From: Candidatus Parcubacteria bacterium
Lineage (GTDB): Bacteria; Patescibacteriota; Patescibacteriia; Patescibacteriales; UBA12075
Direction: 5' to 3'
NCBI GenBank assembly: GCA_002869165.1
Contig: PKTK01000012.1
Span: forward strand, 7,275 to 71,274
DNA length: 64,000 bases
Shown here: piece after piece, positions 14,962-54,000 of the stretch
How the letters are laid out: the number at the start of each line of letters is the position of its first letter
Position numbering within the stretch: position 1 is the first letter of the stretch
Notes under the pieces: generated by a model
What the model was told of the DNA's origin: nothing
Databases searched by the model: none
The model's input: the letters and a program-made list of their open reading frames with translations, nothing else
Program-made: the position numbers and the translations under genes

Positions 14962-14965
14962 TATT

Positions 14966-31781: not shown

Positions 31782-31841
31782 ATATGATATTGAATGCCTA
31801 ATACAAAAAAACAAGCTCTTTCGAGCTTGTTTTTATATTCT

Positions 31842-32026
31842 GAGCGGGTAACGGGAATCGAAGTGGCGGAAGCCACACACCATCACTTATTTATGTTTTT
31901 TTATCTTAAATTCAATAATCTTTTATTTTTATATTCTATTATTTAAATACGCTTCTCAATCAGATTCATTACCGAAACTCACTCAGAAATAACAAAACAG
32001 CTCTGTTCGAGCTGTCTTGTTATTTC
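31842..32026 (-). mobile_element. cargo-less mini-insertion at the tRNA-Gly 3' end (element C)
   Basis: 31842-31862 is 21/21 identical to 32029-32049 (tRNA T-loop to 3' end), offset 187 bp. A hairpin GTGGC-TTCC-GCCAC (tRNA orientation; 31863-31876) abuts the ghost copy. A terminator follows each copy. Confidence 0.5.
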
Positions 32027-32282: not shown

Positions 32283-32744
32283 ATGCCAGTACTAGCAATA
32301 AACAAAAGAGCGAAATTTGATTATGAAATCATCTCATCTCATGAGGCTGGGGTTGTTTTGTTTGGGCATGAAGTTAAATCTATTAAAACTAGAAAGCCAA
32401 GCATGAAAGGCTCTTTTGTTACTATTAAGTCTAGTGGTAAAAATGCTGAATTATTTTTGACCAATTGCCATATCTCTCTTTATGATAAGACTACTACTGT
32501 AGAAAACTACAATCCCGAAAGACCAAGAAAACTTCTAATGCATAGAAAAGAGATTGATAAATTAATTGGCAAAAAACAAGAACAAGGACTGACCCTGGTG
32601 CCGATAAAAATATATACCAAAGGCAATCTGATTAAACTTGAGTTCGGAGTGGGTAGAGGAAAAAAGAAACATGATAAGCGTGAAGATATAAAAAAGAGAG
32701 ATACAGACAGACAGATCAGACGAGTAATGAAAGAAAGAAGGTAA
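32283..32744 (+). CDS. smpB: SsrA-binding protein SmpB
   Basis: NKRAKFDYEI...GHEVKSIK...L.NCHISLY...RPRKLLMHRKEI. Confidence 0.9.
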   Translation: MPVLAINKRAKFDYEIISSHEAGVVLFGHEVKSIKTRKPSMKGSFVTIKSSGKNAELFLTNCHISLYDKTTTVENYNPERPRKLLMHRKEIDKLIGKKQEQGLTLVPIKIYTKGNLIKLEFGVGRGKKKHDKREDIKKRDTDRQIRRVMKERR

Positions 32745-32849: not shown

Positions 32850-33237
32850 GGGGATGCTGGGTTTCGATAGAGAGACTATCATTTTGCATTCGAGATGAGT
32901 TCGTGGGAGTCTCATAAAAACTTTCACACCTAAATAAGTGCAAAAAATGTACTAGCAAAAGCTAAAGCTGCTTTCAGCATGCCAGCTTTTGCACCTGTTG
33001 TCGCTTAAAATTGCCACAACCATCCGACTTCTTGATGTCTAGTAGGGAAGACCCGGGTGTCATATCACTAGACTGGACCCGAGTGTGCGGTTAACTTTGG
33101 TCGAGATTTATCAAACTGCTCGCTGTTTATTTTTTTGTTTGGTTTTTAGATAAACAGTTAAATCACAAACTAATCTAGTCTTCGTAAAATTGTAAAATGT
33201 AACTTTCTAGACGCGAGTTCAACTCTCGCCATCTCCA
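32850..33237 (+). ncRNA. ssrA: tmRNA (SsrA)
   Basis: 5' GGGGATGCTGGGTTTCGA. 3' T-arm GCGAGTTCAACTCTCGC plus acceptor CATCTCC-A with the G3:U pair. Candidate tag ORF 32940-33008 is AKNVLAKAKAAFSMPAFAPVVA*. Adjacent to smpB. Confidence 0.9.
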
Positions 33238-33238
33238 C
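33216..33238 (+). repeat. attL core (part of the functional tmRNA 3' end)
   Basis: Identical to 41857-41879. Confidence 0.85.
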
Positions 33239-34418
33239 AATCAGAAGCAGAACCGAAAGGTTCTGTTTTTGGTTTATTGTTAGCATTAAACTGGACTCCT
33301 AATGACTTCATAATATCTACAAATTGAGCCTTGTTTATTTGCTCACTGTCCATATACTGTCCTTTTTTAGACAAAAGCTTGATTGAGTCCTCTAAAGTTG
33401 AAGGTGAAAGATGGGCGTATCGCATCGTAGTGGAGACACTGCTGTGTCCCATTAACTTTTGAATAACGACTATTGGACAGCCTTTCATCGCCAGATGACT
33501 GGCAAAACTGTGACGAAGGGCGTGCCACATAATCTTTCTGTCTTCCTTATTTTTTAGGTCTAAATTGCTTATAGCTTTTTTTAATGCCCTACGAGCGAGG
33601 TTTTCCTCAAGAAAGTTTCCATTTTTGTCTGTAAAAACAAAACCTTTTGATTTTTTCCTTCTTTCAAATATTTCACGAACCTCATAATCAAAAGGAATAT
33701 GTCTTTCCTTGCTGTTTTTTGGCACTCCTAATATATTTCGGTAGAAAGACTTTCTGACTGAAATAACATTCGTCTCAAAATTTATATCTGACCAACTTAA
33801 TGCACGAATTTCGCCATAACGAAGTCCTGTTCGCAAAACAAGCAATATCATATCTTTTAACATCCCATCAGTTGAACTTAATAATAAATCACTTTCTTCA
33901 AATGAAAGAAAATCATAATCTTGTGGAGGGACTTTTAAAAGTTTTATTTTAGGTTTCTTTTCAAGTTCGCTCCACTCAACCGCAAATTTAAGTATCGTGT
34001 TTAGAACAGTGATGTGTTCATTGATAGTCTTGTTGGCTAATCCCTTATTTTTGTTTAATGCCTTAAACTCTTCTATATTTAAACTTGTAATTAAATCCAG
34101 TTTTTTCTTTCCAAAAAAGGGGATGAGGTGCTTATTGAGAATGCTTGCCCTACCACGCACTCCTGAAATTTTACAATTATTCTTCACATAAACTTCGTGC
34201 CATTTCCAGGCAAATTTTTCAAATACTTCAACTTCCTTTTGCACTTTCTTAACAAAAGGATTTTCACCCTTTACCAATTTTTGCATTATCAATCTTTCAA
34301 AAGCTAAAGCTCCGTTTCTACTATTTTCAGGAGACTTCTTTCTGTATCTTTTACCTTGGTAACGAATATCAATGAACCACTTATTATTGGTGGTGTGTTT
34401 ATTTTTTATTACTGCCAT
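33219..34418 (-). CDS. tyrosine-type site-specific integrase
   Basis: Motifs: TGLRYGEIRAL (Arg I), HALRHSFASHL (H-x-x-R), GHSSVSTTMRYAHL (catalytic Tyr). The start is taken at MAVIKNK.... The last codons run into attL. Confidence 0.9.
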   Translation of the reverse strand: MAVIKNKHTTNNKWFIDIRYQGKRYRKKSPENSRNGALAFERLIMQKLVKGENPFVKKVQKEVEVFEKFAWKWHEVYVKNNCKISGVRGRASILNKHLIPFFGKKKLDLITSLNIEEFKALNKNKGLANKTINEHITVLNTILKFAVEWSELEKKPKIKLLKVPPQDYDFLSFEESDLLLSSTDGMLKDMILLVLRTGLRYGEIRALSWSDINFETNVISVRKSFYRNILGVPKNSKERHIPFDYEVREIFERRKKSKGFVFTDKNGNFLEENLARRALKKAISNLDLKNKEDRKIMWHALRHSFASHLAMKGCPIVVIQKLMGHSSVSTTMRYAHLSPSTLEDSIKLLSKKGQYMDSEQINKAQFVDIMKSLGVQFNANNKPKTEPFGSASDCGDGES

Positions 34419-34614
34419 ATACATCTTCAATACTGTCAATATTAAAACTATTTTTGACCTTATCAAGATTAAAACGGATTTGTCTGCCGACTTTAAAAAA
34501 AGGAATTTTGCGTTCTGTTACAAGACGATAAACAGTTGTAACAGAAACTTGCAACTCATCAGCAAGTTCTTCACCCTTTAAAAAATCTTTAGTTTTATTA
34601 TATTCAGTATTCAT
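34399..34614 (-). CDS. excisionase / MerR-AlpA-type HTH DNA-binding protein
   Basis: LKGEELADELQVSVTTVYRLVTERKIPFFKVGRQIRF. Lies immediately upstream of and overlapping the integrase. Confidence 0.8.
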   Translation of the reverse strand: MNTEYNKTKDFLKGEELADELQVSVTTVYRLVTERKIPFFKVGRQIRFNLDKVKNSFNIDSIEDVYGSNKK

Positions 34615-34704
34615 TACAATTTTTAAGGAGCAACATAGAGCCGACGGGTGATGTCGGGTGGACTATGTCGCAACCTTATCACAATTTTTATTAAATTCAA
34701 ATAT

Positions 34705-35580
34705 CTAATTTCTATTTAAATATTTTTCTAAAATTTTCTCCATTTCTCTTTTTTCTTCCTCTGTAATCTCTACTGATTTATTTATATCTGCAATTACATC
34801 CAAAAAATCATTTTCAGCCAAATTTTCATTCATTATACTACCTCTTTTATTAAGTTTATTGTAAAAATCAATAATGGTAATTATACTTTCATTTTCCAGA
34901 AATTTTTTAATTTCATTTTTATAGTCATCAACCAGCTCCCAGTCGGATTTTTTAATAAAATTTATATCATAATTTGAATGTATTAAATCAATTAAGTATA
35001 AATGCTTTTGAATGTGTTTAATTGCTTTTACTGTGTTTACTAATTTTCTTTGAAAAATAATATTTGGCTGGTTGTTTGGCTCAAGCTCTTCTGGCTCAAC
35101 ACCTTGAGGCGAAAAATAATCAATAAGCTTGATTACATCAAAACCTAAATAATTTTTATCATCAAAAATTTCTTCTATTTTTTTGAACACCCTGTCAGCA
35201 TCCTCTTGGTCTAAACTTTCATTCAATAAATTATAAATTTTCTCTAAATTATTTTCTTCTTTTCTTAATAAAATAAGTTTTACATCAAGCCCAATTATAA
35301 AAGTGTTTAAACTATTTAAAGCTGATTTATAATTTAAATATGCGGTTTGTAAATCCAGGATTATATAAGTAAAACTATTATAAAAAGCAATTAGCTTATT
35401 ATATTCTTCAACTTCTCTTGGGGTGGTGCAAATACCATTCTCCAGCCTCTCTTGCTCTAAAACGCTTATTATTCGCTCTCCACCATCAGTAACTGAATTA
35501 TTATTGGCAAACAATAACTCCACTTTCTCTTTAAAGGGTAAATTTTTTGATAAATTTTTAAAATCAATTTTGCTCTTCAT
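34705..35580 (-). CDS. hypothetical island protein
   Basis: 291-aa ORF. No motif recognised. Confidence 0.55.
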   Translation of the reverse strand: MKSKIDFKNLSKNLPFKEKVELLFANNNSVTDGGERIISVLEQERLENGICTTPREVEEYNKLIAFYNSFTYIILDLQTAYLNYKSALNSLNTFIIGLDVKLILLRKEENNLEKIYNLLNESLDQEDADRVFKKIEEIFDDKNYLGFDVIKLIDYFSPQGVEPEELEPNNQPNIIFQRKLVNTVKAIKHIQKHLYLIDLIHSNYDINFIKKSDWELVDDYKNEIKKFLENESIITIIDFYNKLNKRGSIMNENLAENDFLDVIADINKSVEITEEEKREMEKILEKYLNRN

Positions 35581-35584
35581 ATGT

Positions 35585-35962
35585 TTAGTTTAATTTTATT
35601 TTCTTTTTAACCACTATTGCTTCAATGGTTTCAATTTTTGACTTGATAGATATTTGCTCATAAGCTTTTAGTAGTTGCCCAGAAAGAACTCCGATGCAGT
35701 TGGCAGTTTTGTTATCCATTCTTCCTCCTCTAACCTCATTTATTACTTCGTTTAGTAGAGAAATTATATCCTCTGCTTGTTTAATCTCTATGGGATGTAA
35801 GTTGTGTTTAATTAAATTTTTATTTGCAATACCACCATTTCTGCGAGCTTGCATTTTTTCTTTTTCAGATATTTTTTCACTGTGCCAAAAACAGTGCTGT
35901 TCTCCTTTCAATGCCCGTGATAAACATTGACCTCCTTTTTCTTTTTTGTGTTCACATTGCAT
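35585..35962 (-). CDS. hypothetical island protein with an N-terminal C-x10-C-x12-C-x2-H knuckle
   Basis: MQCEHKKEKGGQCLSRALKGEQHCFWH resembles the CxxKxxxGxxCxxxAxxGxxxCxxH motif common in phage and plasmid proteins. Confidence 0.55.
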   Translation of the reverse strand: MQCEHKKEKGGQCLSRALKGEQHCFWHSEKISEKEKMQARRNGGIANKNLIKHNLHPIEIKQAEDIISLLNEVINEVRGGRMDNKTANCIGVLSGQLLKAYEQISIKSKIETIEAIVVKKKIKLN

Positions 35963-36080
35963 ATAAGTTAACTTATGGGGGGGCTATATTGTTACTCTAT
36001 TGTTTGTTTATTTAACCTTAAAGGAGATAACTATATAGTTCCTATATTTAGTATTATAGTAATATACTACTGTTCTATAA

Positions 36081-36425
36081 TTAAAAATTAATTTTATCCA
36101 CTTCAATTTCCGTGTCATTATCACGAATACTTTTGCCTATTAAATAGTTATCATACTCTTCGCTAAACTGATTTAATGCTTTTTTTGTCAATTCGTCCCA
36201 AAATATTTTATCTTCTGTAAAAAATATTTTCTTCCATTTTTTGTCCCCATAAGGCACGGACGGAGGGTAAAGAACAAATTGTTGGGTATTAGTTTCAAAT
36301 TTTGATTTACGAATTGTAAATCCGTTGATTTCAAATTGAGCAACTAACATTGTTCCGATTGCTGGCAATTTTTCATCATCACGATAAGTAAATTTAAAAT
36401 TTACATCCTCAATGCTAATTTTCAT
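36081..36425 (-). CDS. hypothetical island protein
   Basis: 114-aa ORF. Confidence 0.5.
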   Translation of the reverse strand: MKISIEDVNFKFTYRDDEKLPAIGTMLVAQFEINGFTIRKSKFETNTQQFVLYPPSVPYGDKKWKKIFFTEDKIFWDELTKKALNQFSEEYDNYLIGKSIRDNDTEIEVDKINF

Positions 36426-36583
36426 AAAAATATATTAATAATTAAAAAACCTATACTAATTATATTATTAGTATAGGCTATAAATATTGGCTAAAAATAA
36501 TAGGTTACATTATTTATTTTTTTAATCAATTTTGTAAATTATTAATAAATTCCACTATAATAAATAATCTAACGGGTTACATT

Positions 36584-37597
36584 TTAGGTTACATTCTTTT
36601 TTCTGTGCTTATTAACCTTTCTTGCATTTCTTTTCCTTTTGCATTCTGGTCTAATTTTTTCCGAACAAACTTCACCTGAATACCTTCTTCCATCTGGATT
36701 AAATAAAGGTAAAATTCTATTACATTCTGCACATCTTCGGACTTCATTTTCAGAAAGATAAAGTAATTCATAATATAAAAGCGATTTATAGTCATTAAAT
36801 ACTATTACACAATCCTCTCTTTCGTCAAAGGTGCATCTTTTAGTAAAGTTTTCAATGTTTTTTTTATTTATTTTTTTAGTTTTTAGTGCATTATTATTCA
36901 GAACTCCATCACACATCTCTACTAATTCCCATATTGCCTTGTTGCAATTAAAAATTTTCTTATACTTTAAATCTTGTCTTAAAAATTCAACATCCTCTTC
37001 TGTTATTTGGTTTAAATATATTTTTTCTTCATATTTTTTTATTATTTTGTATATTTTATTTGCCTCATCTTGTGTAATTCCAAAAATATCTAAATTATCT
37101 TTTTTTTCAAAAACATCAGTAAAGCTATACATTCTCCATTCCAGCAAGCCACCATAATCTACATACTCCACATTTATAGCAGGCATTGTCTTGTATGTAA
37201 TATCATCTTTCATATTGCTAAAATATTGTTTAATAGAGTCGCTACCCTTGGGCATTAAAGACCCTTTTAAGTATACTTGATTTCCAGCATTGTGATATTC
37301 CACAGAAACTAAAAAAACCAAGGAAAATTGCTTGTCATAAGGAGGTGATAGTTCGTAATTAAAAATATCACAAGAAACAGTAATATCACAAACTTCATTT
37401 ACTATCCTTTCAAGCTCGCCCTCATTTTTAAGGTATAATTCTACCAAGGAATTATCTTCCTTTTCTATATCTAAATCTTCTAATTTTAATTCGCTTGCTT
37501 GCCATCTCGGTATTATAGCAATACATTTATGTTCAACATAACCCAAATTTTCATTAATAACATCTCTTGCCCTTTTTGTTGTATACTTTTTAGCCAT
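36584..37597 (-). CDS. hypothetical island protein with a C-terminal Cys cluster and basic tail
   Basis: 337 aa, ending ...RRCAECNRILP...GEVCSEKIRPECKRKRNARKVNKHRKK. Confidence 0.6.
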   Translation of the reverse strand: MAKKYTTKRARDVINENLGYVEHKCIAIIPRWQASELKLEDLDIEKEDNSLVELYLKNEGELERIVNEVCDITVSCDIFNYELSPPYDKQFSLVFLVSVEYHNAGNQVYLKGSLMPKGSDSIKQYFSNMKDDITYKTMPAINVEYVDYGGLLEWRMYSFTDVFEKKDNLDIFGITQDEANKIYKIIKKYEEKIYLNQITEEDVEFLRQDLKYKKIFNCNKAIWELVEMCDGVLNNNALKTKKINKKNIENFTKRCTFDEREDCVIVFNDYKSLLYYELLYLSENEVRRCAECNRILPLFNPDGRRYSGEVCSEKIRPECKRKRNARKVNKHRKKNVT

Positions 37598-37803
37598 TTT
37601 AAAAATTAAAAAACTATGTCATTATAGCCGAGAAGCTATTCAGAGACGCAGAAAGGTTTAACTCCTCTGGACAAGAAGAGTAATCTCTAAATTAAATCTC
37701 GGCTACAAGGACAGAGCCATAATTTATTTCCTTTCTGCTTTGTTAATGTTTAAATGAAGTGTCCAGTTTCACTATTATTAATATATCAATTATATTATTA
37801 TAG

Positions 37804-38667
37804 TCAATTATTTTTAATTGTATTTTTAATAATAAATTCTAAATACTCTTTGTTATTGCCAAAAACTGTTTTTGCACTTCTAACTGTTCTTTTGATTATA
37901 TTATCAAACTGCCTTTCGGTTATATCAATATATTTTATATCGTTATTGGTAAGTAGGTCCCAGTTTGCATACAAAACAATATTAGAAGTTAAAGGCAAAG
38001 TAAACTCTATGTCTTTATGTCCAAACCCAGCTCTTGCACCAATTGCGTTAGGTCCAAATTTTTTTTCTCTTTCAGGGCTACATATATGTGCTGGATTATC
38101 AGAGGATATAAAATTTTTATCCTTTGGTGCTGTTAATAGCTTCCAGTGCATATTATATAAATAATTTGCAACATACAAAGAAGTGTTCATTGAACTATTT
38201 GCGAAGTGCGAATTAAAATTTTCTAAACCTTCTTTAATTTCGTCTATGCTAACACCCTTACCAGAAGAGGCTGGAGGCAAATAACTATCACTGTTATTTA
38301 CAGAAAAATTTTTTGAGCTTTCTGCAATATCATTCAAAAATCCCCTAAACTGCTCTCTATTTAATCTAATTCTGTTAAAAATTGTTGATGTATAAATGGA
38401 TAGCCATAATTTATCGGTGGTGTTAATTGGTTCTTTATTATTTATTTTATTTTTAATAATTTTTGAATATTCACTTTCTAATTCCGACAAACTCTCCTCA
38501 ATATCAAGAGAGCCATTAACAGTATTATAATGACCTTCTTTAAATTTATTTAGCGGGTTAGTTTTATAAATCCTGTCGTCCTCTTCTAAAACCCAAATTT
38601 TACCATCTTTATCGGCAAAATTTTTCTGGTAAGTTACACTAATGTAATGGTGATAGACTTTTTTCAT
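37804..38667 (-). CDS. DUF4238-family protein
   Basis: N-terminal HHYISVTYQKNF and C-terminal W..L......FISSDNP are signatures I associate with DUF4238. Confidence 0.6.
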   Translation of the reverse strand: MKKVYHHYISVTYQKNFADKDGKIWVLEEDDRIYKTNPLNKFKEGHYNTVNGSLDIEESLSELESEYSKIIKNKINNKEPINTTDKLWLSIYTSTIFNRIRLNREQFRGFLNDIAESSKNFSVNNSDSYLPPASSGKGVSIDEIKEGLENFNSHFANSSMNTSLYVANYLYNMHWKLLTAPKDKNFISSDNPAHICSPEREKKFGPNAIGARAGFGHKDIEFTLPLTSNIVLYANWDLLTNNDIKYIDITERQFDNIIKRTVRSAKTVFGNNKEYLEFIIKNTIKNN

Positions 38668-38718
38668 AATTTTAGATTATTATATGTAGTTACTATATTA
38701 TTTTTTATATAATTAAAC

Positions 38719-38766
38719 AAGAAAAAACCTGCGAAAGCGTTGTTTTGCTATCGCAGGTTGTGTTGT
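38719..38766 (-). terminator. terminator, copy 1 of a duplicated ~48-bp module
   Basis: On the minus strand, CCTGCGA...TCGCAGG is followed by TTTTTTCTT. It nearly matches 40122-40169. Confidence 0.6.
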
Positions 38767-38782
38767 ATAAAGTTTCAAGTTT

Positions 38783-39436
38783 TTAACTTATGATATTTTT
38801 TGCATTATGTATAAATGCTTTTAATTTTTCATTGCTTTTAAATCCGCTTTCTCCTTTCGTGCCAGAGTTGGCATCAACACCGAAAGGTTTTACTGCCTGG
38901 ATTGCCTCATTAACATTTTCAGGATTAAGTCCTCCTGCTAAAAAGACAGGCTTTCTGTATTTTTCTACTATCTCACGACTTAAATCCCAATCGTGTGTTA
39001 TTCCGGTTCCTCCAACTTGGTCAGTTTCAAGGTTCACGGTATCCAACAATATTGCATCTACGGCATTTAAATATCCATAACCATTAGCAATAGATTTTTC
39101 ATTTACCACGTGCAGGGATTTAATCAGTTTTATATATGGTATTTTCTCCCTGATAATTTGGGCGTCATCTGGCGTGCTGTCACCGTGCAACTGAATAGTT
39201 GTTACTCCGATGAATTGAGCAAGCGAAACAATTTCTTCATTATCAACAAGATGGGTTACAAATACGGATGAACAAAATGGAGGCAAATGACTCACTATTT
39301 TTTTAGCAAATTCTTTATCAATAAAATCAGTTGATGAATGTTTTTGCCCAACCAGCAAACCGATTGCATCAGCACCATAGAATACTGCCATCAATGCATC
39401 CTCTGTGCTTTTTATACCGCATACTTTAACTCTCAT
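38783..39436 (-). CDS. trpF: phosphoribosylanthranilate isomerase
   Basis: MRVKVCGIKSTEDA...GADAIGLLV...TIQLHG...GGTGITHDW...FLAGGLNPENV...PFGVDANSG matches canonical TrpF along its full length. AAGGAG RBS. The ORF-track N-terminal extension is rejected. Confidence 0.9.
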   Translation of the reverse strand: MRVKVCGIKSTEDALMAVFYGADAIGLLVGQKHSSTDFIDKEFAKKIVSHLPPFCSSVFVTHLVDNEEIVSLAQFIGVTTIQLHGDSTPDDAQIIREKIPYIKLIKSLHVVNEKSIANGYGYLNAVDAILLDTVNLETDQVGGTGITHDWDLSREIVEKYRKPVFLAGGLNPENVNEAIQAVKPFGVDANSGTKGESGFKSNEKLKAFIHNAKNIIS

Positions 39437-40019
39437 TTTTTTCTCCTTTTGTTCTATGTTTAAGAATAAGTTCAAGTAAAATTTCAGCATACCAGTCTGC
39501 GACTTCAACCATTGCATCGGTTGCTTCCTTGTCATTGGAATAAAGTCTCTTGCCAAAGTTATCAATTTTTCTTTCGCATTTTGAAAAAAGAATACTAACA
39601 AGAGAGGAATGGTGGTTGCATAGACAAAATTCAATATATGCAATCATTGCTCTTTTGAGAAATTCTGGAGACTCTGCATTAATACAGTCAATAAAATGTT
39701 CTGCTATTGCGTTAGCCACTTCTTTGTCATCGCCAGCTTCTGTGAAATGGGCATAAGGCAACAAAAAAAGCATTTCAGTTTCTTTGTTGAAATCAATCAC
39801 TTCCTCAAGATAGCCCTTAACTTCAACTATTGCCTTTTTCGCTAAATCACTCAAAATGCCTGGATAATGCTCTTTATCTAAATACACAGCAAGAGCTTCA
39901 ACACCATCACCTCCGTTATTAAAAACAGATGCTTCCATAATCATCTTTTTGTTCAATCCAATAATATATGGTATTTCGTGCCATTTGATTGCTCCAACTC
40001 CACCGCCTATTGTAAGCAT
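39426..40019 (-). CDS. hypothetical island cargo protein
   Basis: 197 aa with a GGAGGAGG RBS. Overlaps the trpF start by 11 nt. Confidence 0.6.
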   Translation of the reverse strand: MLTIGGGVGAIKWHEIPYIIGLNKKMIMEASVFNNGGDGVEALAVYLDKEHYPGILSDLAKKAIVEVKGYLEEVIDFNKETEMLFLLPYAHFTEAGDDKEVANAIAEHFIDCINAESPEFLKRAMIAYIEFCLCNHHSSLVSILFSKCERKIDNFGKRLYSNDKEATDAMVEVADWYAEILLELILKHRTKGEKNES

Positions 40020-40121
40020 AATTTCCTCCTCCAGTTTGAATATTTTGTATTACAAATTATTATCAAGGTTCAAATATGATTATATATGTTTATCATATTT
40101 TATATAAAAAATCAAGAATAA

Positions 40122-40169
40122 AAGAAAAACCTGCTAAAGCGTTGTTTTGCTCTTCGCAGGTTGTGTTGT
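40122..40169 (-). terminator. terminator, copy 2 of the duplicated ~48-bp module
   Basis: AAGAAAAACCTGCTAAAGCGTTGTTTTGCTCTTCGCAGGTTGTGTTGT compared with 38719-38766. Confidence 0.55.
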
Positions 40170-40184
40170 TTGTGGGTTTATTGG

Positions 40185-40415
40185 TTAAAGCCACCAAAAG
40201 GTTTTGTTGTTTTTGGCTAACCCTTTTCCAATTTGCTCACGGACATCTGCAAATGAATGAAGGGCGAAAAGATTGAAAGTTTTTCCATCTCTTTCTATGC
40301 TACGACCGGTGTCACTCACTTCCATAGCGTCAAAATCAATCATTAGCATTCCGCCGTCTTTTACAGACATTATCCGTAGTTCGTCAAAATTTGCGTCTAC
40401 TGCTATTACAGCCAT
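40185..40415 (-). CDS. hypothetical small island cargo protein
   Basis: 76 aa with an AAGGAGGG RBS. Confidence 0.55.
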   Translation of the reverse strand: MAVIAVDANFDELRIMSVKDGGMLMIDFDAMEVSDTGRSIERDGKTFNLFALHSFADVREQIGKGLAKNNKTFWWL

Positions 40416-40427
40416 TGAAGCCCTCCT

Positions 40428-40931
40428 TTATTCATCGTAAAGATAATTAGCCAACACGGCGAATATCTCGTTGTTGTTTCTTTTGGCGATGTCTTCTGCG
40501 TTTATAAGGGACAACAAATCCAGTTCAATGGCGACAGCCATCATCACGGCTTCATCGGCTTGTTCAGGCAGTCCAGAAAAGGAAAGGATGTAGTTGTCGG
40601 CAACGATAGCTCCGCCCCATTTCCCGTTATCAGGGTCACGGCTTTCATAGCTGGTCATATGACCAAGCTCAAAGTGTGTAGAAATAAGCCTTGCTCCTTT
40701 CTCTTCGGAGTTGTAGGAGTAAGCTGACCATTTTTCTTGCGGAACAGGTTTGCCGACAATACTTACAAACTCAAGTCTTTTAGCGCCAAGGCTGTAAATA
40801 CTGACATAGCCTCCTTTTTTGAGGATGCCTTTACTTGTTGCAAGTTCTGGGTAATTTTTAACAAGAATGTTAACAATCTCCCCGGTTTTTTCAATTACCT
40901 TTTCAACAACTTTTGCTGTAAATTCGTTCAC
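40428..40931 (-). CDS. hypothetical protein with a GlcG/DUF336-like C-terminal motif
   Basis: GTG start with an AGGAGGG RBS. WGGAIVADNYILSFSGLPEQADEAV parallels the DUF336 GGA(I/V)..G..IGAIGVSG....DE motif. The call is weak. Confidence 0.5.
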   Translation of the reverse strand: MNEFTAKVVEKVIEKTGEIVNILVKNYPELATSKGILKKGGYVSIYSLGAKRLEFVSIVGKPVPQEKWSAYSYNSEEKGARLISTHFELGHMTSYESRDPDNGKWGGAIVADNYILSFSGLPEQADEAVMMAVAIELDLLSLINAEDIAKRNNNEIFAVLANYLYDE

Positions 40932-40943
40932 GCTTCCCTCCTG

Positions 40944-41252
40944 TTATTTAGATTTTTCGGTTTTCATTTCACCAGCCGAGAAAAACCCCTCAACCGCCAT
41001 TGTTTCAGTGTCAATATCAATATTGGCTTCTTTGAGCTTTTCCTTGATTTCATTGCGTGTTTTTTCTTCGGTGGAACAGATGCGGATGTAAGGTGCTGAT
41101 TTGACACTGCTATCAAAAGTCCACACAGTAGATGGGACAAATGTAACAATTGCGTCTTTCTGCAACCCCATATCGTGCATTACCAGTCCGATAATTGAAG
41201 TAAGGTTGCTTGCCTTATTTTCATCCATTCCAAAAATCATAATGTTTGGCAT
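40944..41252 (-). CDS. hypothetical protein starting Met-Pro (tautomerase-superfamily-like N-terminus, speculative)
   Basis: 102 aa beginning MPNIMIFG.... Confidence 0.5.
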   Translation of the reverse strand: MPNIMIFGMDENKASNLTSIIGLVMHDMGLQKDAIVTFVPSTVWTFDSSVKSAPYIRICSTEEKTRNEIKEKLKEANIDIDTETMAVEGFFSAGEMKTEKSK

Positions 41253-41305
41253 TTTCTTTCTCCTAATAAGTCTGTGTTTAAATAATGATAAATAATAAAT
41301 AATAA

Positions 41306-41560
41306 TTACAAAATAGATTTTTTTATTTCAATTTTTGGATTTGACAAGGTGATTACCATTTCAAATTCTAATGTTTTTAACATTTTAATCAAGGTTTCAA
41401 AAGATAAATTTTTTTTACCACCTTCAACAAGTGCAATATAATTTGAGGTTAGCTCCATTTTATCAGCCAGTGTTTTTTGAGATATGCCGTTGTTTATTCT
41501 TGCAGTCTTTAATAAGATGCCCATATCTTTCATTGCTTGTATCTTTATTTTTTCTATCAT
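41306..41560 (-). CDS. XRE-family HTH transcriptional regulator
   Basis: LKTARINNGISQKTLADKMELTSNYIALVEGGKKNLSFETLIKM. Confidence 0.8.
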   Translation of the reverse strand: MIEKIKIQAMKDMGILLKTARINNGISQKTLADKMELTSNYIALVEGGKKNLSFETLIKMLKTLEFEMVITLSNPKIEIKKSIL

Positions 41561-41856
41561 TTAACTCTCCTTTTTCGCTTTATATAATTGTAAAATGAAC
41601 AAAAATTAATATTACAGTATATCACGAAAACTACAAAAAGTCAACTATTTTAGCTGACTCTGAAATTTAATCCCTAATGTCACTTCCTCTATGTTGCATT
41701 GAGCATTTCACTGCCCAAATACTGTCCACGAAGTGGTAATTAATGATTAAATGTGAATAGTAGTGACGACTTCTGCAAATCGGTTTTTTCTTTAAGTTAA
41801 AGCAAATTATTGAATTTTGTTTAACCTTGCAGAAATACTCAATTTGCCTCTTTTAC

Positions 41857-41879
41857 AGTTCAACTCTCGCCATCTCCAC
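41857..41879 (+). repeat. attR core (displaced native tmRNA 3' end, continues ..CCA plus native terminator)
   Basis: Identical to 33216-33238. Followed by an 18-bp-stem terminator at 41881-41922. Confidence 0.85.
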
Positions 41880-42068
41880 CATAATAAAACAGTCATTTGA
41901 AATGGCTGTTTTATTATGGTGTAAATGGTGGGTATGTTTAAATTGCTATGATTATACGCATTATTATCACAAAAAAAACAAATAGCAGGTAGACGGTACA
42001 AAACAGAAAAATTAAAAATATTTTGAGGGGGTGAGGCTTCTGCCTCTCTACTCTCACCATCTCCACCA
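41880..42068 (+). mobile_element. cargo-less mini-insertion at the tmRNA 3' end (element B), in tandem with the island
   Basis: A degenerate third copy of the tmRNA end, TCTACTCTCACCATCTCCACCA 42047-42068 (offset 187 bp), is preceded by TTGAGGGGGTG 42023-42033 and hairpin GAGGC-TTCT-GCCTC 42033-42046. Confidence 0.5.
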
Positions 42069-42139
42069 ACATAAAACAACCACACAAAGTGGTTGTTTTA
42101 TTTTATAAGACTATTGAAAATAAAGTTACTATAAATTAT

Positions 42140-42508
42140 TTAATAATTTAATGCTTTTATAAAATTAAAAATAATAGAAAAAATAAACCAAAAAATAAAT
42201 GCAATAAAAACAATAAAACGGACTTTTCTATATACTGATCTATACGCTAAACCAAGTTTTTTCAAAATGTTAATTATTTTAATTCGTTGTTCCATGGAAA
42301 GAAGCCCCACATATAATGAATAGCCAATACCTACAAAAATCATTGGACCAAAAATAAAATACAGCCAAGCTGGGTTATTTATAAATATACTTAACAAATC
42401 AGAAAAATCAAAATCTTTATCTAGGAAGATAAATATTGGTATTATAAGAATTAAACCAATCAAAGCTATTATAAGATCTCTTTTGTTCAATTTACGATCT
42501 TGATCCAT
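42140..42508 (-). CDS. small polytopic membrane protein
   Basis: 122 aa with 3-4 hydrophobic helices. Confidence 0.55.
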   Translation of the reverse strand: MDQDRKLNKRDLIIALIGLILIIPIFIFLDKDFDFSDLLSIFINNPAWLYFIFGPMIFVGIGYSLYVGLLSMEQRIKIINILKKLGLAYRSVYRKVRFIVFIAFIFWFIFSIIFNFIKALNY

Positions 42509-42693
42509 TTTTTATTATTATTTCAAATTATACCATTAAATTAGCAATTAGAAAATATAAAAAAGACATTTAAGAAGTCGAACAATTATCCATAAAGCAG
42601 TGACTACCAATTAGTAAAGACTTAAACAATTAATATAATATGTATTATAAATAAAAAACGCCCAAATTATATTAGGGCGTTTGAATTTTTGAA

Positions 42694-43131
42694 TTAATTT
42701 TTCTGAGTACTGAAACCTGCTTGCACAACTGACCGAAAAGCAATATCATGAGCTCCTTCATTGTTTTCATCATCCAGAGAAATACCGATTGCACCTATCA
42801 ATGACTGACCATTATATATCGGTACTCCGCCACCTTCACAGATAAATCTCTCTGTCTGAATTCCCATAATCTCAGGTGTTGTTCCTCTTTCATCAAGTGC
42901 ACGTTGACAGTACTTAGTACTTTCACCAGTCCACAATGATTGTCTGGCTTTCAAAAAAGCCTCGTTGGATAAACCTGGGCTCATGTTTTCCATTATGCTT
43001 CTGGCAATCTCTACGCCACTCACATTAACAATTTTGATTGATGCATTTAACATTCTCTCCGTGGTCTCATTGTATGCCAAATTAAGTATTTGCATAGCCT
43101 CTTTGGCAACTAGCGATTTAACTTGTCCCAT
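42694..43131 (-). CDS. GlcG/DUF336 (heme-binding-like) family protein
   Basis: GGGVPIYNGQSLIGAIGISLDDENNEGAHDIA. Confidence 0.7.
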   Translation of the reverse strand: MGQVKSLVAKEAMQILNLAYNETTERMLNASIKIVNVSGVEIARSIMENMSPGLSNEAFLKARQSLWTGESTKYCQRALDERGTTPEIMGIQTERFICEGGGVPIYNGQSLIGAIGISLDDENNEGAHDIAFRSVVQAGFSTQKN

Positions 43132-43277
43132 TTAATTCTCCTTTTTTAAAGTAACGTTTAAAAAAATATCAAGTACATTATATTAATATTTTTATCTCAA
43201 AATGTCAAATTTATGTTGACATTTTTACTAAAGTATAATATTTTTATTAAAATTGATCTTTTAAAATGAGGTGAATA

Positions 43278-43616
43278 ATGTTTGCAAAAAACTCCGATAA
43301 TATAAACCTAGTATTTCGTGAAATAAATGAATTTATTCTACTGATAAACAATACTCAAAAATGTTTATATATTATCAAAGAGCATGAAACGCATATAGAT
43401 ATTTACAAAATATGTTATGTAAATAAAAGAGGTAAAGCAGAATTAATCAAAGAACAATTACTAGCAAATCATAACTGGGAAATCGTGTCTAGAAAAGACC
43501 TAGAAGACAAAAAAGATATTGCTGATAAAATAGTGGCGATGTGTCTTGAAATAGTATCAATTTCTAACAAAAATCTAAACAAATTGAATAATCAAATCGA
43601 AAACATTTTTTATTAA
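43278..43616 (+). CDS. hypothetical protein
   Basis: 112-aa ORF with a GAGGTG RBS. Confidence 0.5.
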   Translation: MFAKNSDNINLVFREINEFILLINNTQKCLYIIKEHETHIDIYKICYVNKRGKAELIKEQLLANHNWEIVSRKDLEDKKDIADKIVAMCLEIVSISNKNLNKLNNQIENIFY

Positions 43617-43629
43617 AAAAGGAGAACTC

Positions 43630-44082
43630 ATGCATAATACAATTGATATTGAAGATTTAAAACCCTTCTATAAACTTGATGATGGAAAAGTATTTTTAGC
43701 TTGTTTTATTCATAAGCCCCATCTAACTTTAATAATAAATGTTAAAGATGATATAAATGAAAATACCTACTTTCTAAAATTAAAAAAGAGTGACAAAATA
43801 TGGTTGCTTCTAATAACGGCCGTAGCTGAAAAAGTTTGTGATGAAGACTTTCATCTTTATGAGCCCATTATTGATTTTGACTGTGAAGTAGTAGGCCTGG
43901 ACTATTCAACACCAAATTTAATTGACATTAATTTAAACTATAGGACACTTGAGCATCTAGCTATTAAAGGAACAAAAAAGGCTCTAAGTAATAAAAATGT
44001 TGACTGTAAAGTGTTTAATGTTGGTAAAATTAGAGCTGAGATTAAGAAGGCTCTTATAGATAAATTTGCAGATTTGATCTAA
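43630..44082 (+). CDS. hypothetical protein
   Basis: 150-aa ORF with an AAGGAGAA RBS. Confidence 0.55.
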   Translation: MHNTIDIEDLKPFYKLDDGKVFLACFIHKPHLTLIINVKDDINENTYFLKLKKSDKIWLLLITAVAEKVCDEDFHLYEPIIDFDCEVVGLDYSTPNLIDINLNYRTLEHLAIKGTKKALSNKNVDCKVFNVGKIRAEIKKALIDKFADLI

Positions 44083-44138
44083 ACATCAAAAAACGGACCC
44101 ACAAAGTCCGTTTTTTTATTTTTTCAAAGTTATCAACA

Positions 44139-44168
44139 TTGACTTGAATGGTAAAAATATGCTATAAT
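44139..44168 (+). promoter_or_regulatory. sigma70-type promoter candidate
   Basis: TTGACT 44139-44144, 18-nt spacer, TATAAT 44163-44168. Confidence 0.5.
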
Positions 44169-44227
44169 AGTAACATAAAGATCAAAAAATACTCTTTTTT
44201 GATATAAAAAAACAAAAATAAAATACT

Positions 44228-47191: not shown

Positions 47192-47470
47192 ATTGTCGAT
47201 GGTAGACATGAAATTTATTTAACAGTCAACGATAACACTGGAAAGATACTAGAAAAAAGTTCAATACTAGAACTATTCATCAAAGAAGCCAAAGCTGTTT
47301 CAGCTGAAGACTTTGTAAATACTGCTTTACTTGATGACAAAGACGAATCTGATTCAATGATAATGATCTATATACTAACTGCTCTATTTGCAACCTTTGG
47401 CGCTATTCTTATATTTATTGCTTACTTCAAATTCCTCAAAAATACTAATAACACAAACAATGAGGTTTAA
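47192..47470 (+). other. in-frame continuation of the surface-protein gene beyond TAA 47189-47191, encoding an Ig-like strand pattern and a C-terminal TM anchor
   Basis: My translation is IVDGRHEIYLTVNDNTGKILEKSSILELFIKE...MIMIYILTALFATFGAILIFIAYFKFL..., with no stop for 92 codons in A+T-rich DNA. Confidence 0.55.
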
Positions 47471-48842
47471 AAACTACATAGATCAACACAGAGAAATAGC
47501 TCAAATTATTTATGGGGTGGTTTTAATTATTCTCATACCTCTTTTGATTAGTTATAATACAATTTCAATAATCTCTAAGTACAATCAAAGTATTGATGTA
47601 ACCTTGCAACGACAAGCCTTGAGTCTGGTTAACACTATCAATGCTTTAATAAGTGACGAGCTGAATGATCATGACAAACTACAAGATAAAATTGAAAATA
47701 TCAAAGAAAGAGATTCAGATATTATTGAAATTTCGGTTTTAATTCCCCAAGGTGATGATTTTATAATAATTGCTGCTGATAATCAAAATATTGTTGGAGA
47801 AAATATTAATTATTATTACTATAATGTAGCTTGGGCGCAAAAAAACTCCGATGCCTTAGTTACTGACTCGATTAAATTATCAAGACTTGATAAAAGCACA
47901 AGTTTTCAAACTGAAAACAACGAAAGATTTTGGTTGGTTACAAAAACTCTTACCAATGAAGATGGTAAAAAAATTGCCCTACTATCACTTAATATTTCTT
48001 CTGAAATTGTTGATCAGCTCACTGAGAGCAACCGCAACTCCTCCTTGCTTATTTTGTTTGCTACGATAATAATAACTATCCTGTTTTTAGTAATTGCTGT
48101 TAGGCTTTGGGATTATGTTCTGCTTTACAAAAAAATCAAAGAATTAGATAAAATGAAAAATGAATTCATTTCGATTGCTTCACACGAACTTCGAACTCCA
48201 ATTACTAGTATAAAAGGTTACAGTTCAATGGTATTAGATGGTACTATGGGAAAGATAAATGACGATGTTAAAAACGCAGCAAAAGTTATAAAAGACTCTT
48301 CAGTAAGACTTGGCACCCTGGTTGAGGATTTATTAAATGTGAGTCGTATAGAGCAAAATCGAATACAAATAAACCTTCAAGTAATTTCTCCAAAAAAAAT
48401 TATTGAAGAAGCTATAACAGAACTCAAAGTACAAGCCAAAAATAAAAATTTATCACTCAAATTTTTACCCCACAACAAAAAATTACCTTTATTAAACATT
48501 GATCCAGAAAAACTAAAACAAATTTTAATTAATTTGATTGGAAATTCCATTAAATACACTAACAAGGGCGGCATTGAAATAAAAACTCAAGAAAAAGAAA
48601 ACAAATTTTTAGAAATTATAATCAAAGATACAGGTATAGGCATGACCAGCAAAGAAAAGGAGAAGCTTTTTCAAAAATTCTATCGAGTAAAAAATGAAGA
48701 CACTGAAAAAATAACTGGCACAGGACTTGGACTGTGGATCACTAAAGAGCTAGTAGAGATGATGGATGGAAAAATTACATTAGACTCTATAAAAGACGTT
48801 GGTACACAAATAAACCTCATATTCAAAATTGAACAAATGTAA
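47460..48842 (+). CDS. sensor histidine kinase (no cognate response regulator in the window)
   Basis: HisKA H-box SIASHELRTPITSIKGY. HATPase N and G boxes (NLIGNSIKYT, DTGIGM, GTGLGLWI). The start at MRFKNY overlaps the end of the preceding frame. Confidence 0.85.
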   Translation: MRFKNYIDQHREIAQIIYGVVLIILIPLLISYNTISIISKYNQSIDVTLQRQALSLVNTINALISDELNDHDKLQDKIENIKERDSDIIEISVLIPQGDDFIIIAADNQNIVGENINYYYYNVAWAQKNSDALVTDSIKLSRLDKSTSFQTENNERFWLVTKTLTNEDGKKIALLSLNISSEIVDQLTESNRNSSLLILFATIIITILFLVIAVRLWDYVLLYKKIKELDKMKNEFISIASHELRTPITSIKGYSSMVLDGTMGKINDDVKNAAKVIKDSSVRLGTLVEDLLNVSRIEQNRIQINLQVISPKKIIEEAITELKVQAKNKNLSLKFLPHNKKLPLLNIDPEKLKQILINLIGNSIKYTNKGGIEIKTQEKENKFLEIIIKDTGIGMTSKEKEKLFQKFYRVKNEDTEKITGTGLGLWITKELVEMMDGKITLDSIKDVGTQINLIFKIEQM

Positions 48843-48885
48843 CTATAAAAGGAGATTTTTGAAAATCTCCTTTTTTTCATTTTTT

Positions 48886-49164
48886 TCATAATTCTCCAAT
48901 ACTCCAACCTGGTATTGTTTTATTTAAATACTCTCCAAACAATGGCCGGATATCTCCTTTTACAAGTTCAACCAAATTTCTCTCTCTATCCAGTATAAGC
49001 ATACTGTCATTTACAGTTTCAAGCCAAGGATCATCTGCTTCCTTTTTTGCCTCTTCTTTGGCTAAAAACAAATTGTTAGAAAAACTTGAAAGAACTAAAT
49101 ACAAATGCTTGTCTTTTTTTTGAAAACACAAAGTTTCAAATCTTTTATTTCTATTTTTATACAT
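48886..49164 (-). CDS. hypothetical protein
   Basis: 92-aa ORF with a GGAGG RBS. Confidence 0.5.
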   Translation of the reverse strand: MYKNRNKRFETLCFQKKDKHLYLVLSSFSNNLFLAKEEAKKEADDPWLETVNDSMLILDRERNLVELVKGDIRPLFGEYLNKTIPGWSIGEL

Positions 49165-49306
49165 ATTCTACCTCCAGTTTATTTATATTAGTATTTGTCT
49201 TTTCATTTTTTTGTATTTAAACTAACATTATCACAAAATAATTAAATATTTATTAGACTATTTAACTTGATTTGTTGTATTAACTAGAATATAATATAAT
49301 TTATAT

Positions 49307-50488: not shown

Positions 50489-50636
50489 ACAATACTACTA
50501 TGTAAAATATATCAATTACACCCTATTTATAAAAATACAAAAAATTTAAATTCATTGCTTTGACAAAATAAAATAAATAACATATAATATTCAAAGTAAT
50601 ACCTCTTTAGACAGGTATTTATTTTTTTCAAATCTA

Positions 50637-50720
50637 GCCCAGGTGGTGGAATTGGTAGACACGAGGGACTTAAAATCCCTTGGCCGCAAGGCTGTGCGAG
50701 TTCGATTCTCGCCCTGGGCA
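50637..50720 (+). tRNA. tRNA-Leu (anticodon UAA), long variable arm, CCA not encoded
   Basis: GCCCAGGTGGTGGAATTGGTAGACACGAGGGACTTAAAATCCCTTGGCCGCAAGGCTGTGCGAGTTCGATTCTCGCCCTGGGCA. Confidence 0.9.
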
Positions 50721-50901: not shown

Positions 50902-50960
50902 ATAAATACCTTCTTTTGAAGGGTTTTTACATAAATGTTCTTATAAAAAGGAGAGGAATA

Positions 50961-52513: not shown

Positions 52514-52522
52514 TTACTTAAA

Positions 52523-52620: not shown

Positions 52621-52636
52621 TGTATTTTATTTTCTA

Positions 52637-53923: not shown

Positions 53924-54000
53924 AATATATTTTATTAATTTATTATTTAAGTTCTTGATTTTTTAAATTTTGGCAGGACTTTTTAGGGTCCTGCCTTTTT

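Follow-up and report, generated by a model that had tools for sequence, protein, structure and literature searches.

A probable tyrosine-integrase island at the tmRNA gene of a Candidatus Parcubacteria bacterium and recurrent units of about 180 nt at tDNAs

In the genome of a Candidatus Parcubacteria bacterium, the gene ssrA coding for transfer-messenger RNA (tmRNA) ends in a 23-bp sequence of which a second, perfect copy lies 8.64 kb downstream. This raises the question of what the DNA between the two copies is and how it came to be there. The locus was analyzed in a window of 64,000 nt (assembly GCA_002869165.1, contig PKTK01000012.1, positions 7,275 to 71,274), to which all coordinates refer. 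The segment is very probably a small integrative genomic island of 8.66 kb, inserted by tyrosine-integrase recombination of its attachment site (attP) with the 3′ end of the tmRNA gene. It belongs to the known class of genomic islands which integrate into tRNA and tmRNA genes (tDNAs) and is an ordinary island of this kind in a little-studied lineage. The central features of the locus are the following.

32283..32744, plus strand: smpB (Pfam SmpB, 2.2e-51), forming the conserved smpB-ssrA pair and serving as chromosomal anchor directly upstream of ssrA
32850..33240, plus strand: ssrA (ARAGORN 32850-33238; Rfam RF00023 32850-33240)
33216..33238, plus strand: attL core, perfect 23-bp repeat, placed by tmRNA structure alignment
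33239..33274, plus strand: island-borne replacement ssrA terminator, CAGAACCgaaaGGTTCTG then TTTTTGGTTT (terminator scan)
33219..34424, minus strand: tyrosine integrase, 401 aa from the ATG at 34424, reading frame open to a TTG at 34466
34399..34614, minus strand: excisionase-type helix-turn-helix (HTH) protein, a putative recombination directionality factor (RDF), 71 aa, overlapping the integrase gene start
41306..41560, minus strand: XRE-family HTH regulator (Pfam HTH_3, 6.5e-9), first gene at the attR end
41857..41879, plus strand: attR core, displaced ssrA 3′ fragment, followed by CA, which completes CCA, and a hairpin terminator at ~41882-41916

A reading made from the sequence alone had proposed perfect 23-bp direct repeats, with the first copy as the working 3′ end of ssrA, and both proposals were upheld. 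The window contains two copies of the 23-mer AGTTCAACTCTCGCCATCTCCAC and no more, at 33216-33238 and 41857-41879, each on the plus strand, and none of 100 dinucleotide shuffles contained a match with three mismatches tolerated. Because ARAGORN and Rfam place a full-length tmRNA ending at the first repeat (RF00023, 116 bits with a gathering score of 47, model positions 1-374), this copy is the working end of the gene. The encoded tag peptide is AKNVLAKAKAAFSMPAFAPVVA. The attL core takes in the two final nucleotides of the 5′ half of the T-stem, the whole T-loop (TTCAACT), the 3′ half of the T-stem, the 3′ strand of the acceptor, in which the G3:U70 pair is kept, the discriminator A and one C. 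Beyond the core, attL runs on with AATCAG... and attR with CATAAT.... At least the last 23 nt of ssrA come from the island, and its encoded 3′ end reads ...CATCTCC-A-CAA and lacks CCA.

The second repeat had been taken for the displaced native end. It is indeed followed by the CA completing CCA and by a strong terminator, an inverted repeat of 29 nt with 90% complementarity which resembles the native ssrA terminator of a Falkowbacteria locus (L010), but this end in turn belongs to a recurrent unit of about 180 nt described below. Likewise, the difference between the termini ...TCCACCA at attR and ...TCCACAA at attL is real, but the dependence on CCA addition that was ascribed to integration is normal in the lineage. 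Encoded CCA is absent in 15 of 16 related ssrA genes (...CCAC, then not CA); the tRNA-Leu gene of the window also lacks it (...GGGCA-CAA), and the tRNA-Gly gene encodes it. Since these 15 ssrA genes and tRNA-Leu are without encoded CCA, the lineage relies on CCA addition anyway, which rules out a special burden from its loss here.

At attL, the terminator scan found a hairpin at 33248-33265 plus a T-run, and the opposite strand of this terminator encodes the integrase tail ...KPKTEPFGSAS. The hairpin plus TGTTTTTGTTTT recurs with compensatory stem changes at the attL of three loci of relatives (L037, L186, and L188). Two junctions can be written from the ends of the island.

Reconstructed attP junction: ...GCCTCTTTTAC-AGTTCAACTCTCGCCATCTCCAC-AATCAGAAGCAG...
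Predicted empty attB junction: ...CTAGACGCG-AGTTCAACTCTCGCCATCTCCAC-CATAATAAAACAG...

Between the repeats lie 13 open reading frames (ORFs) of at least 70 aa, namely the integrase, the excisionase-type protein, the XRE regulator and ten cargo ORFs. All of them are on the minus strand, as described earlier, where 12 genes had been counted. The integrase ORF (33219-34466) matches Pfam Phage_integrase (1.9e-31) and, in its N-terminal SAM-like part, Phage_int_SAM_3 (1.8e-9). The motifs TGLR(216)YGE, K250/K253, H315ALR318 (HALRHSF), GH341SS, and RY350AH, numbered along the 415-aa ORF, align with solved integrases and XerA, and all six catalytic residues of the tyrosine recombinase superfamily (R-K-H-x-x-R-H/W-Y) are present. 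The assignment to this superfamily, made before from the motifs, is therefore confirmed by profile and alignment. For all Xer and integron NCBIfam families the scores are far below the cutoffs. The gene adjoins ssrA in opposite orientation, and its stop codon TGA (33219-33221), complementary to TCA of the T-loop, lies inside the attL repeat, which agrees with the notion of an integrase ORF reading into attL. Because the stop falls inside the identity block, the protein is identical in the integrated and the excised state.

The 71-aa protein matches Pfam HTH_17 (3.6e-11; 43.6 bits, cutoff 27) and the TIGR01764 'excise' profile (43.1 bits, cutoff 28.8). Together with the overlap with the integrase gene start, this is in line with the excisionase proposed from the sequence; by profile it is a member of the excisionase/RDF family with a putative RDF role. 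Its gene is kept beside the integrase gene in L086, L186, L188-L190, and L037. Upstream of the XRE gene, a promoter-like site was found at 41644-41616 (promoter scan).

The locus shows the Islander signature of tDNA islands in three respects. A full-length tmRNA gene with a displaced 3′ fragment downstream on the same strand was found, as was a tyrosine integrase inside the interval which is neither of the Xer nor of the integron type. The length of 8.66 kb falls within the range of 2-200 kb, and only the integrase tail overlaps attL, an overlap which the signature allows.

Relatives of the locus were collected by an SmpB search of genome contigs, which returned 526 relatives. The best of these (70% identity and below) belong to metagenome-assembled genomes (MAGs) of Ca. 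Parcubacteria, Falkowbacteria, and other Patescibacteria. NCBI likewise assigns a cargo protein of the island to Candidatus Parcubacteria bacterium, and the CPR affiliation presumed before is right. The genes of the island are missing from all 80 related smpB loci which were compared (at most 70% SmpB identity to the window). A block homologous to window positions 51983-56530 starts 0.24-1.5 kb after ssrA in L013, L008, L005, L030, and L016, and 18.7 kb after it here.

Sister islands with homologous integrase and excisionase modules occupy the equivalent place in ssrA of at least four other CPR assemblies. In L086, L186, and L037, integrase and excisionase genes follow smpB and ssrA in reverse orientation, and the integrases are 44-53% identical to the one of the window. 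L086 (44%) shows the order smpB-ssrA-int-xis, and its tmRNA end GTTCGATTCCCGGCACTTCCAC has a perfect 22-bp repeat about 10.5 kb away, at equivalent positions and followed by a native-type terminator. In L186 (Ca. Parcubacteria; 52%) the integrase ends inside the tmRNA and the synteny tRNA-Gly-smpB-ssrA is like that of the window, and in L037 (53%) it lies directly after ssrA. L188 has an identical 22-nt core beside the integrase and no adjoining tmRNA. The att cores match each host's own tmRNA sequence. Among the 120 closest integrases, tails of the type ...GDG[GE]S, which correspond to the translated tmRNA acceptor and T-arm of the opposite strand, were found in eight, and K[QT]K[QT]E tails, the translated terminator T-run, in many more. 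The anatomy of the ends, the sister islands at ssrA and the absence from relatives support the integration that had been proposed.

The integrase family counts over 600 strong relatives, many from Patescibacteria, and att-flanked prophages have been described in this group (PMC13059738). The statement that mobile islands are rare in genomes of the candidate phyla radiation (CPR) is thus only partly true. A further relative of the integrase, 46% identical, adjoins a group I intron (L190, 11243-11520; Rfam RF00028, 65.5 bits) with no detectable tRNA or tmRNA, and its target may be an intron-containing tRNA gene.

The course of events, including crossover position, excision competence, regulation and cargo function, is one that we infer. 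AttP would carry the sequence from the T-loop through the discriminator plus one C, as well as its own intrinsic terminator. The crossover would take place in or beside the T-loop, since identity with the gene begins 2 nt before it. Integration would rebuild a working ssrA at attL and displace the previous 3′ end, together with CCA and terminator, to attR, 8.64 kb downstream, and the CCA-adding enzyme would complete the rebuilt tmRNA, which is without an encoded CCA. The integrase gene would read through the island-borne terminator and stop at the TGA complementary to the T-loop. Judging from the functions of the families, excision would require both the integrase and the excisionase-type HTH protein encoded beside it, and the gene set, which runs in a single direction, is probably under the control of the XRE regulator at the far end. 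As capsid, replication and conjugation genes are missing, the island would depend on other means for cell-to-cell transfer. Finally, it would have landed in an ssrA end which was already part of an att-flanked, integrase-less unit of about 187 nt, resulting in a two-member tandem ('accretion').

The cargo lies between the excisionase-type gene and the XRE gene.

34705-35580, minus strand: o291, with 54 full-length relatives among cluster representatives, an uncharacterised family
35585-35962, minus strand: o125, function unassigned, paired with o291
36081-36425, minus strand: o114, no family match
36584-37597, minus strand: o337, no family match, with a C-terminal CxxC...C...C motif and a basic tail
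37804..38667, minus strand: DUF4238 protein (Pfam DUF4238, 1e-24; PADLOC DUF4238-Pers, 1.4e-6)
38783-39436, minus strand: TrpF-like phosphoribosylanthranilate isomerase, 217 aa, stand-alone (Pfam PRAI, 1.3e-32)
39426-40019, minus strand: o197, no family match
40185..41252, minus strand: o76, o167 (40428-40931), and o102, three ORFs

Some annotation was obtained for the DUF4238 protein, the TrpF-like isomerase and a DUF336-like protein (o167), and the remainder consists largely of ORFans. For o337, o291, and o197 no matches were found in the PDB sequence search, PHROGs, PADLOC or NCBIfam. No functional match of o291 appeared in the PDB or PHROG searches; the one homologue whose context was read (P0130) follows a 131-aa gene which overlaps its start, near a serine recombinase gene, and no similarity between this 131-aa gene and o125 was detectable. 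The protein o337 has no relative besides itself among 5.8 billion proteins, and its AlphaFold single-sequence model was unusable, with a predicted local distance difference test (pLDDT) value of 33.

The DUF4238 family is listed by PADLOC as a candidate anti-phage defence gene, and this candidate single gene is the sole defence match in the island. The TrpF-like protein scores 166.9 bits (4.6e-49) against NCBIfam NF002298, which is under the equivalog cutoff of 215 bits. It keeps the KVCGI and LLD motifs, and its ORF overlaps the ORFan o197. To our knowledge the Parcubacteria lineage is not known for tryptophan synthesis, and the gene is thus an odd cargo. For o167 (167 aa), the AlphaFold model (pLDDT 88.6) finds its best PDB matches in EfgA, the DUF336 protein ORFY and HbpS (E 3.5e-3 to 4e-2, template modelling score 0.42-0.57), and the predicted fold is divergent DUF336/GlcG/HbpS-like. 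A chromosomal gene just outside the island (42694-43131) is HbpS-like by Pfam and weakly similar to o167 (29% over 45 aa).

In addition, an intergenic module of 69 nt is present twice (72% identical, ending in ...AAAAACCTGC.AAAGCGTTGTTTTGCT), at 38681-38749 upstream of the DUF4238 gene and at 40083-40151 upstream of the o197-TrpF pair. These modules may be shared promoters or terminators of cargo cassettes.

The annotated cargo of the sister islands comprises SIR2, DUF87, a restriction-modification system and AAA_25 in L186, and AAA_15 plus a PDDEXK nuclease in L086; OLD plus UvrD (Gabija-like) lie beside the L188 integrase. It differs from the cargo of the window island and is largely of the defence type.

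Immediately downstream of attR, the native end of ssrA belongs to a short unit, and like units are found at the other tDNAs, so that all three tDNAs of the window carry one.

41880..42104, plus strand: ssrA unit, integrase-less, 187 nt, with a duplicated tmRNA 3′ end
42050-42068, plus strand: third, degenerate tmRNA 3′ end (att3) ACTCTCaCCATCTCCACCA, 187 nt past attR, with CCA and its own terminator
50701-50925, plus strand: tRNA-Leu(taa) unit, working end 50701-50721, pseudo-copy TTCGATTCTaGCCCTGGGCAC at 50881-50901 (21 nt, one mismatch, 180-nt spacing)
31838-32026, minus strand: tRNA-Gly(gcc) unit, 3′-end copy 187 nt downstream, after TGATGGTGTG and the hairpin TGGCttccGCCA

The ssrA unit opens with the terminator and a weak inverted copy resembling the acceptor; an A-rich spacer then leads to TTGAGGGGGTG (42024-42034) and the hairpin GAGGCttctGCCTC, after which come the pseudo-copy and a second terminator (~42069-42104). 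It is bounded by 41857-41879 and 42047-42068 with 167 nt of non-coding sequence, and being att-bounded and free of integration and transfer genes it agrees in this respect with a cis-mobilizable element (CIME). The 56 nt starting at attR are 79% identical to those of the third copy, with compensatory terminator stems, and the T-stem halves GTGAG/CTCAC of the third copy differ from GCGAG/CTCGC of the gene by one compensatory pair. The tRNA-Leu unit has the same layout, with an inverted tRNA end (50760-50781), the same motif (50859-50869), the hairpin GCCCTtttcAGGGC and its own terminator.

The T-arms of the tmRNA (GCGAG TTCaAcT CTCGCC, 33211-33230) and of tRNA-Leu(taa) (GCGAG TTCgAtT CTCGCC, 50696-50715) are nearly alike, and in L008 and L013 the two genes are identical in T-loop and T-stem 3′ half. 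The possibility that the units serve an RNA-guided nuclease encoded nearby as its guide RNAs was considered and rejected: the only large ORF nearby without assigned function (44228-47191; 1070 aa in JGI) codes for a secreted, thrombospondin-type protein with Cys repeats, and no Cas- or TnpB-like gene was seen near the units.

The same locus was found in four other assemblies (JGI 3300007102, ENA ERZ794999, ERZ794998, and Logan SRR5894289), 99.95% identical and with the island at the same site. They stem from different pipelines and samples, and their contigs, 19-239 kb long, show identical joins. Where these assemblies differ from the window, the change is always an A/C or G/T transversion, and there are no transitions (window positions 28496, 30890, 32273, 32875, 34574, 37616, 39260, and 40135; in one assembly, L001, the equivalents of 33968, 35070, and 40238). 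This looks like sequencing or assembly error, not natural polymorphism. As the five assemblies are effectively one population, they are uninformative on presence or absence of the island.

Several observations weigh against an integration as described. The closest relatives share only 70% SmpB identity, and absence of the island there is not the same as an empty site within the species. No empty attB site was found, as the island occupies one and the same site in all five versions of the population; look-ups with the exact proteins SmpB, the downstream 122-aa protein and the island XRE, which followed the suggestion to look for empty ssrA loci, led to island-bearing contigs only. The circular junction, also suggested as a check, gave no match for the attP sequence in IMG/VR, and arm-type repeats of at least 10 nt were not found in the reconstructed attP. 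In L001 the integrase carries a nonsense codon (E167, GAA to TAA) and the 76-aa ORF (o76) a second one. The former may be a sequencing error and would also fit relaxed selection; the integrase is full-length in four of the five versions. Composition, a further check that had been proposed, separates the island in part: the tetranucleotide usage of 34-39 kb is more than 1.5 standard deviations off the window mean and among the most deviant in the window, but the GC content sets the island apart only bluntly. With neither an empty site nor a circular form found, evidence of present mobility was not obtained.

These observations can be read in several ways. The island may have integrated as proposed and now be fixed, as a domesticated or decaying remnant which no longer excises and is kept for its cargo. 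This is a plausible outcome, if one that we would not bet on: the common site in all five versions, the missing attP junction in IMG/VR, the premature stops in one assembly and the older scar (att3) which the locus already holds speak for it. The repeats, however, are still perfect (23/23), the catalytic residues and the excisionase and XRE genes are intact, and fixation among five assemblies that are essentially one clone says little. That the segment is an assembly or binning artefact, in which foreign DNA was joined at a short shared repeat, is hardly credible. Repeats of about 23 bp can mislead short-read assemblers, but both junctions show the polarity and content expected of attL and attR, and an artefact is excluded because four independent assemblies reproduce both joins.

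Two further readings concern the nature and the extent of the element, and we regard either as improbable. A cryptic prophage remnant or a phage satellite, which would need a helper phage for packaging, is suggested by the int-xis-repressor layout and the size of 8-9 kb, and the many cargo proteins without known function could hide structural or hijacking genes. Against this, none of the 13 island proteins matches a PHROG structural, terminase, primase or replication family, and no integrase relative in IMG/VR is closer than 30% identity. The sister islands, moreover, carry defence and restriction cargo, not phage genes. Neither capsid, portal, terminase nor tail genes, as expected of a prophage, were found among the island proteins (PHROG, Pfam), and relaxase, coupling protein and type IV secretion genes, of which the relaxase would also mark an integrative and mobilizable element, were not detected (Pfam, NCBIfam), but a novel mobilization gene might be among the five ORFs that remain unannotated; by gene content the island thus appears to be neither a prophage nor an integrative and conjugative element (ICE). 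It is also conceivable that a larger unit moves, consisting of the island and the 187-nt unit, or of another 8.5 kb up to tRNA-Leu, by means of the outer att copy, which would be cis-mobilization following accretion. The third copy (42047-42068) has the same orientation, matches at 18 of 20 nt, is followed by a terminator and would allow a hypothetical attL x att3 junction (...GACGCGAGTTCAACTCTC.CCATCTCCACCAACATAAAAC...). The region 42.1-50.6 kb is absent from relatives and compositionally deviant, and cases in which an island and an att-flanked element without integrase were joined by accretion are documented elsewhere (PMC5704250, PMC3146451). However, att3 differs in T-loop (TCTACT vs. TTCAACT) and T-stem and would be poorly suited to strand exchange, and 42.1-52 kb contains no additional att copy. 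Units of about 180 nt also occur at tDNAs without an island; the unit is therefore older than the island and does not depend on it. That att3 is the distal end of an older, large island extending to tRNA-Leu was rejected, since a further copy of the tmRNA end is missing in 42.1-52 kb and att3 is on the wrong side.

The units themselves were followed into the relatives. Of 75 tRNA genes in the window and the fetched CPR loci, ten are followed within 500 nt by a copy of their last 18 nt on the same strand, with at most two mismatches; a control of threefold sequence gave one match, and one of the ten (L036) is merely an adjacent second tRNA-Gly gene. Seven of these ten copies lie at 178-187 nt, and together with two ssrA cases (window and L030) the spacing amounts to 183 +/- 3.3 nt. 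In the common layout, the working tDNA end is followed by a terminator and an inverted, degenerate copy of the tDNA end; beyond an A-rich spacer come a G-rich motif (TGAGGGNGTG) and a hairpin of 4-5 bp whose loop is TTYN, then the tDNA identity, which starts exactly at the first T of the T-loop, and finally a second terminator. The inverted copy is clear in about four of nine units, with a cognate score of 10.6 vs. 6.2 +/- 2.4 for non-cognate pairs. A scan for motif plus hairpin gave seven matches in 2.68 Mb, of which six sit 149-156 nt after a tDNA and the seventh is the ssrA unit of the window, at the corresponding distance from attR. Of 32 hairpin cells, 31 are paired, with compensatory changes in all four pairs. 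No Rfam family matches the units, and a relaxed threshold gave noise only.

Six further tDNAs in three related Parcubacteria and Falkowbacteria MAGs carry units of like layout, 178-186 nt long:

L005: 4798-4975
L010: at tRNA-Leu-cag, tRNA-Ala, and tRNA-Gly-tcc
L030: 2475-2660 and 2899-3079

After the L010 tmRNA, a second L010 tRNA-Gly and the L007 tRNA-Leu, only the left part of the layout is present, with terminator and inverted copy, and shorter variants are located at ssrA in L038, L040, L064, L018, and L021. The L064 unit keeps a remnant of an integrase tail (DKTKT..CGDGGN). In L018 (10958-11044) and L021 (10958-11056) an extra 87-98 nt hold a displaced tmRNA end with the T-arm allele GCGAG..CTCGCC and a GC-rich palindrome inserted in the T-loop, and the working gene has ATGGG..CCCAT. 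Only the first allele is present in L024 and only the second in L025, L031, and L032. As the tmRNAs of this clade are 91-97% identical and the flanks are common to all, the alignment indicates a presence/absence polymorphism with replacement of the ssrA 3′ end.

Decayed tandem tRNA duplications were ruled out as the origin of the units, since 75-nt tRNAs and a 390-nt tmRNA show one and the same period and the hairpin bears no relation to tRNA arms. Constant size, a shared motif and a covarying hairpin would not be expected from random decay. We tentatively suggest, without holding it to be probable, that the units are distinct miniature elements, non-coding and non-autonomous, which integrate at the T-loop of tDNAs with the covarying hairpin next to the crossover and are mobilized in trans by integrases like that of the island. 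Each unit would then supply a replacement 3′ end plus terminator and displace the native end. Such covariation suggests that the units act as folded single-stranded DNA or as RNA, and by analogy the units might be folded attP sites, as known from integron attC and the CTX phage, or small RNAs. If they are such mini-elements, the 8.66-kb island may be one autonomous partner in a wider traffic at CPR tDNAs. The Islander search, with its length filter of 2 kb, does not reach units of this size (PMC4383910).

Short GC-rich palindromes and repeats are also found directly after tDNAs in the AT-rich CPR genomes. L032 differs from L031 by a 38-nt insert about 15 nt after the tmRNA end, TTCGACTCGCTTCGCTCGCTCAGTGCAGGC is present in several MAGs, and L005, L008, L014, and L016 carry GC-rich repeats directly after ssrA.

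Two other regions of the window were conspicuous. The stretch of about 8.5 kb from the ssrA locus to tRNA-Leu (42105-50636) has no counterpart after ssrA in the relatives, in which ssrA is soon followed by tRNA-Leu or the conserved block. Its products are a 122-aa membrane protein, the HbpS-like protein, the secreted Cys-repeat/thrombospondin-type protein of about 1000 aa, a HisKA sensor kinase and proteins without assignment; neither an integrase nor a further att copy was found in it, and 41-47 kb is compositionally deviant. At 13314-16351, on the minus strand, about six paralogous ORFs of ~130 aa lie in tandem, with multiple paralogous matches in L014 and L019 and a composition off the window mean.

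Parcubacteria have tiny genomes, and their mobile elements are poorly charted. The island is a precisely bounded example of integrase-mediated gene flow in this group. The integrases targeting ssrA in CPR form a clade whose sister islands carry defence genes, and integrase, excisionase and the 23-bp core are a candidate tool for site-specific integration in organisms without genetic tools. In this lineage, tmRNA 3′ ends are routinely replaced by element-borne copies with a terminator and without CCA, which bears on tmRNA processing. The units of about 180 nt are the more unusual result: as a mobile or functional family they would, if this reading is true, constitute a new and very small class of tDNA-associated elements.

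Among known systems, CP4-57 of E. coli and VPI of Vibrio cholerae are the classic islands at tmRNA genes. The island shares with Islander-type tDNA islands, for which ssrA is the most enriched target, an integrase adjoining the tDNA, a restored gene, a displaced 3′ fragment at the far end and the T-stem/T-loop class of att site (PMC4383910). It differs in residing in a Parcubacterium, in its small size of 8.66 kb without recognizable phage or transfer genes, and in an integrase ORF which spans the island-borne ssrA terminator and ends in the T-loop. Overlap of the integrase coding sequence with the recombination core is known from the SSV and Mx8 types (PMC4383910, PMC7253208); in the SSV type, integration splits the integrase gene, whereas here the stop codon inside the identity block keeps it intact.

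For the units, the closest concept by analogy is a CIME joined to the island by accretion (PMC5704250, PMC3146451). Alike are the att-flanked, integrase-less 187-nt unit and the later integration of the island into the att copy which forms the gene end, as in the accretion scenario of three steps (PMC5704250). The described CIMEs, in contrast, are kb-sized decayed ICEs or integrative and mobilizable elements, and the units are about 160 nt long, non-coding and of constant length (183 +/- 3 nt), with a conserved motif and a covarying hairpin at many tDNAs.

In its layout, the island most resembles the ssrA-specific islands of Dehalococcoides (PMC3146451). These likewise have a repeat of about 20 bp, a T-loop site, a recombinase ORF overlapping attL and a module on the reverse strand. 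They form tandem arrays that include integrase-less members, lack transfer genes and are read as integrative mobilizable elements, and their recombinase is the CcrB-like serine recombinase DsiB with reductive dehalogenase genes as cargo. In the window, by comparison, a tyrosine integrase with an excisionase takes this place, and the array consists of one island plus one unit of 187 nt.

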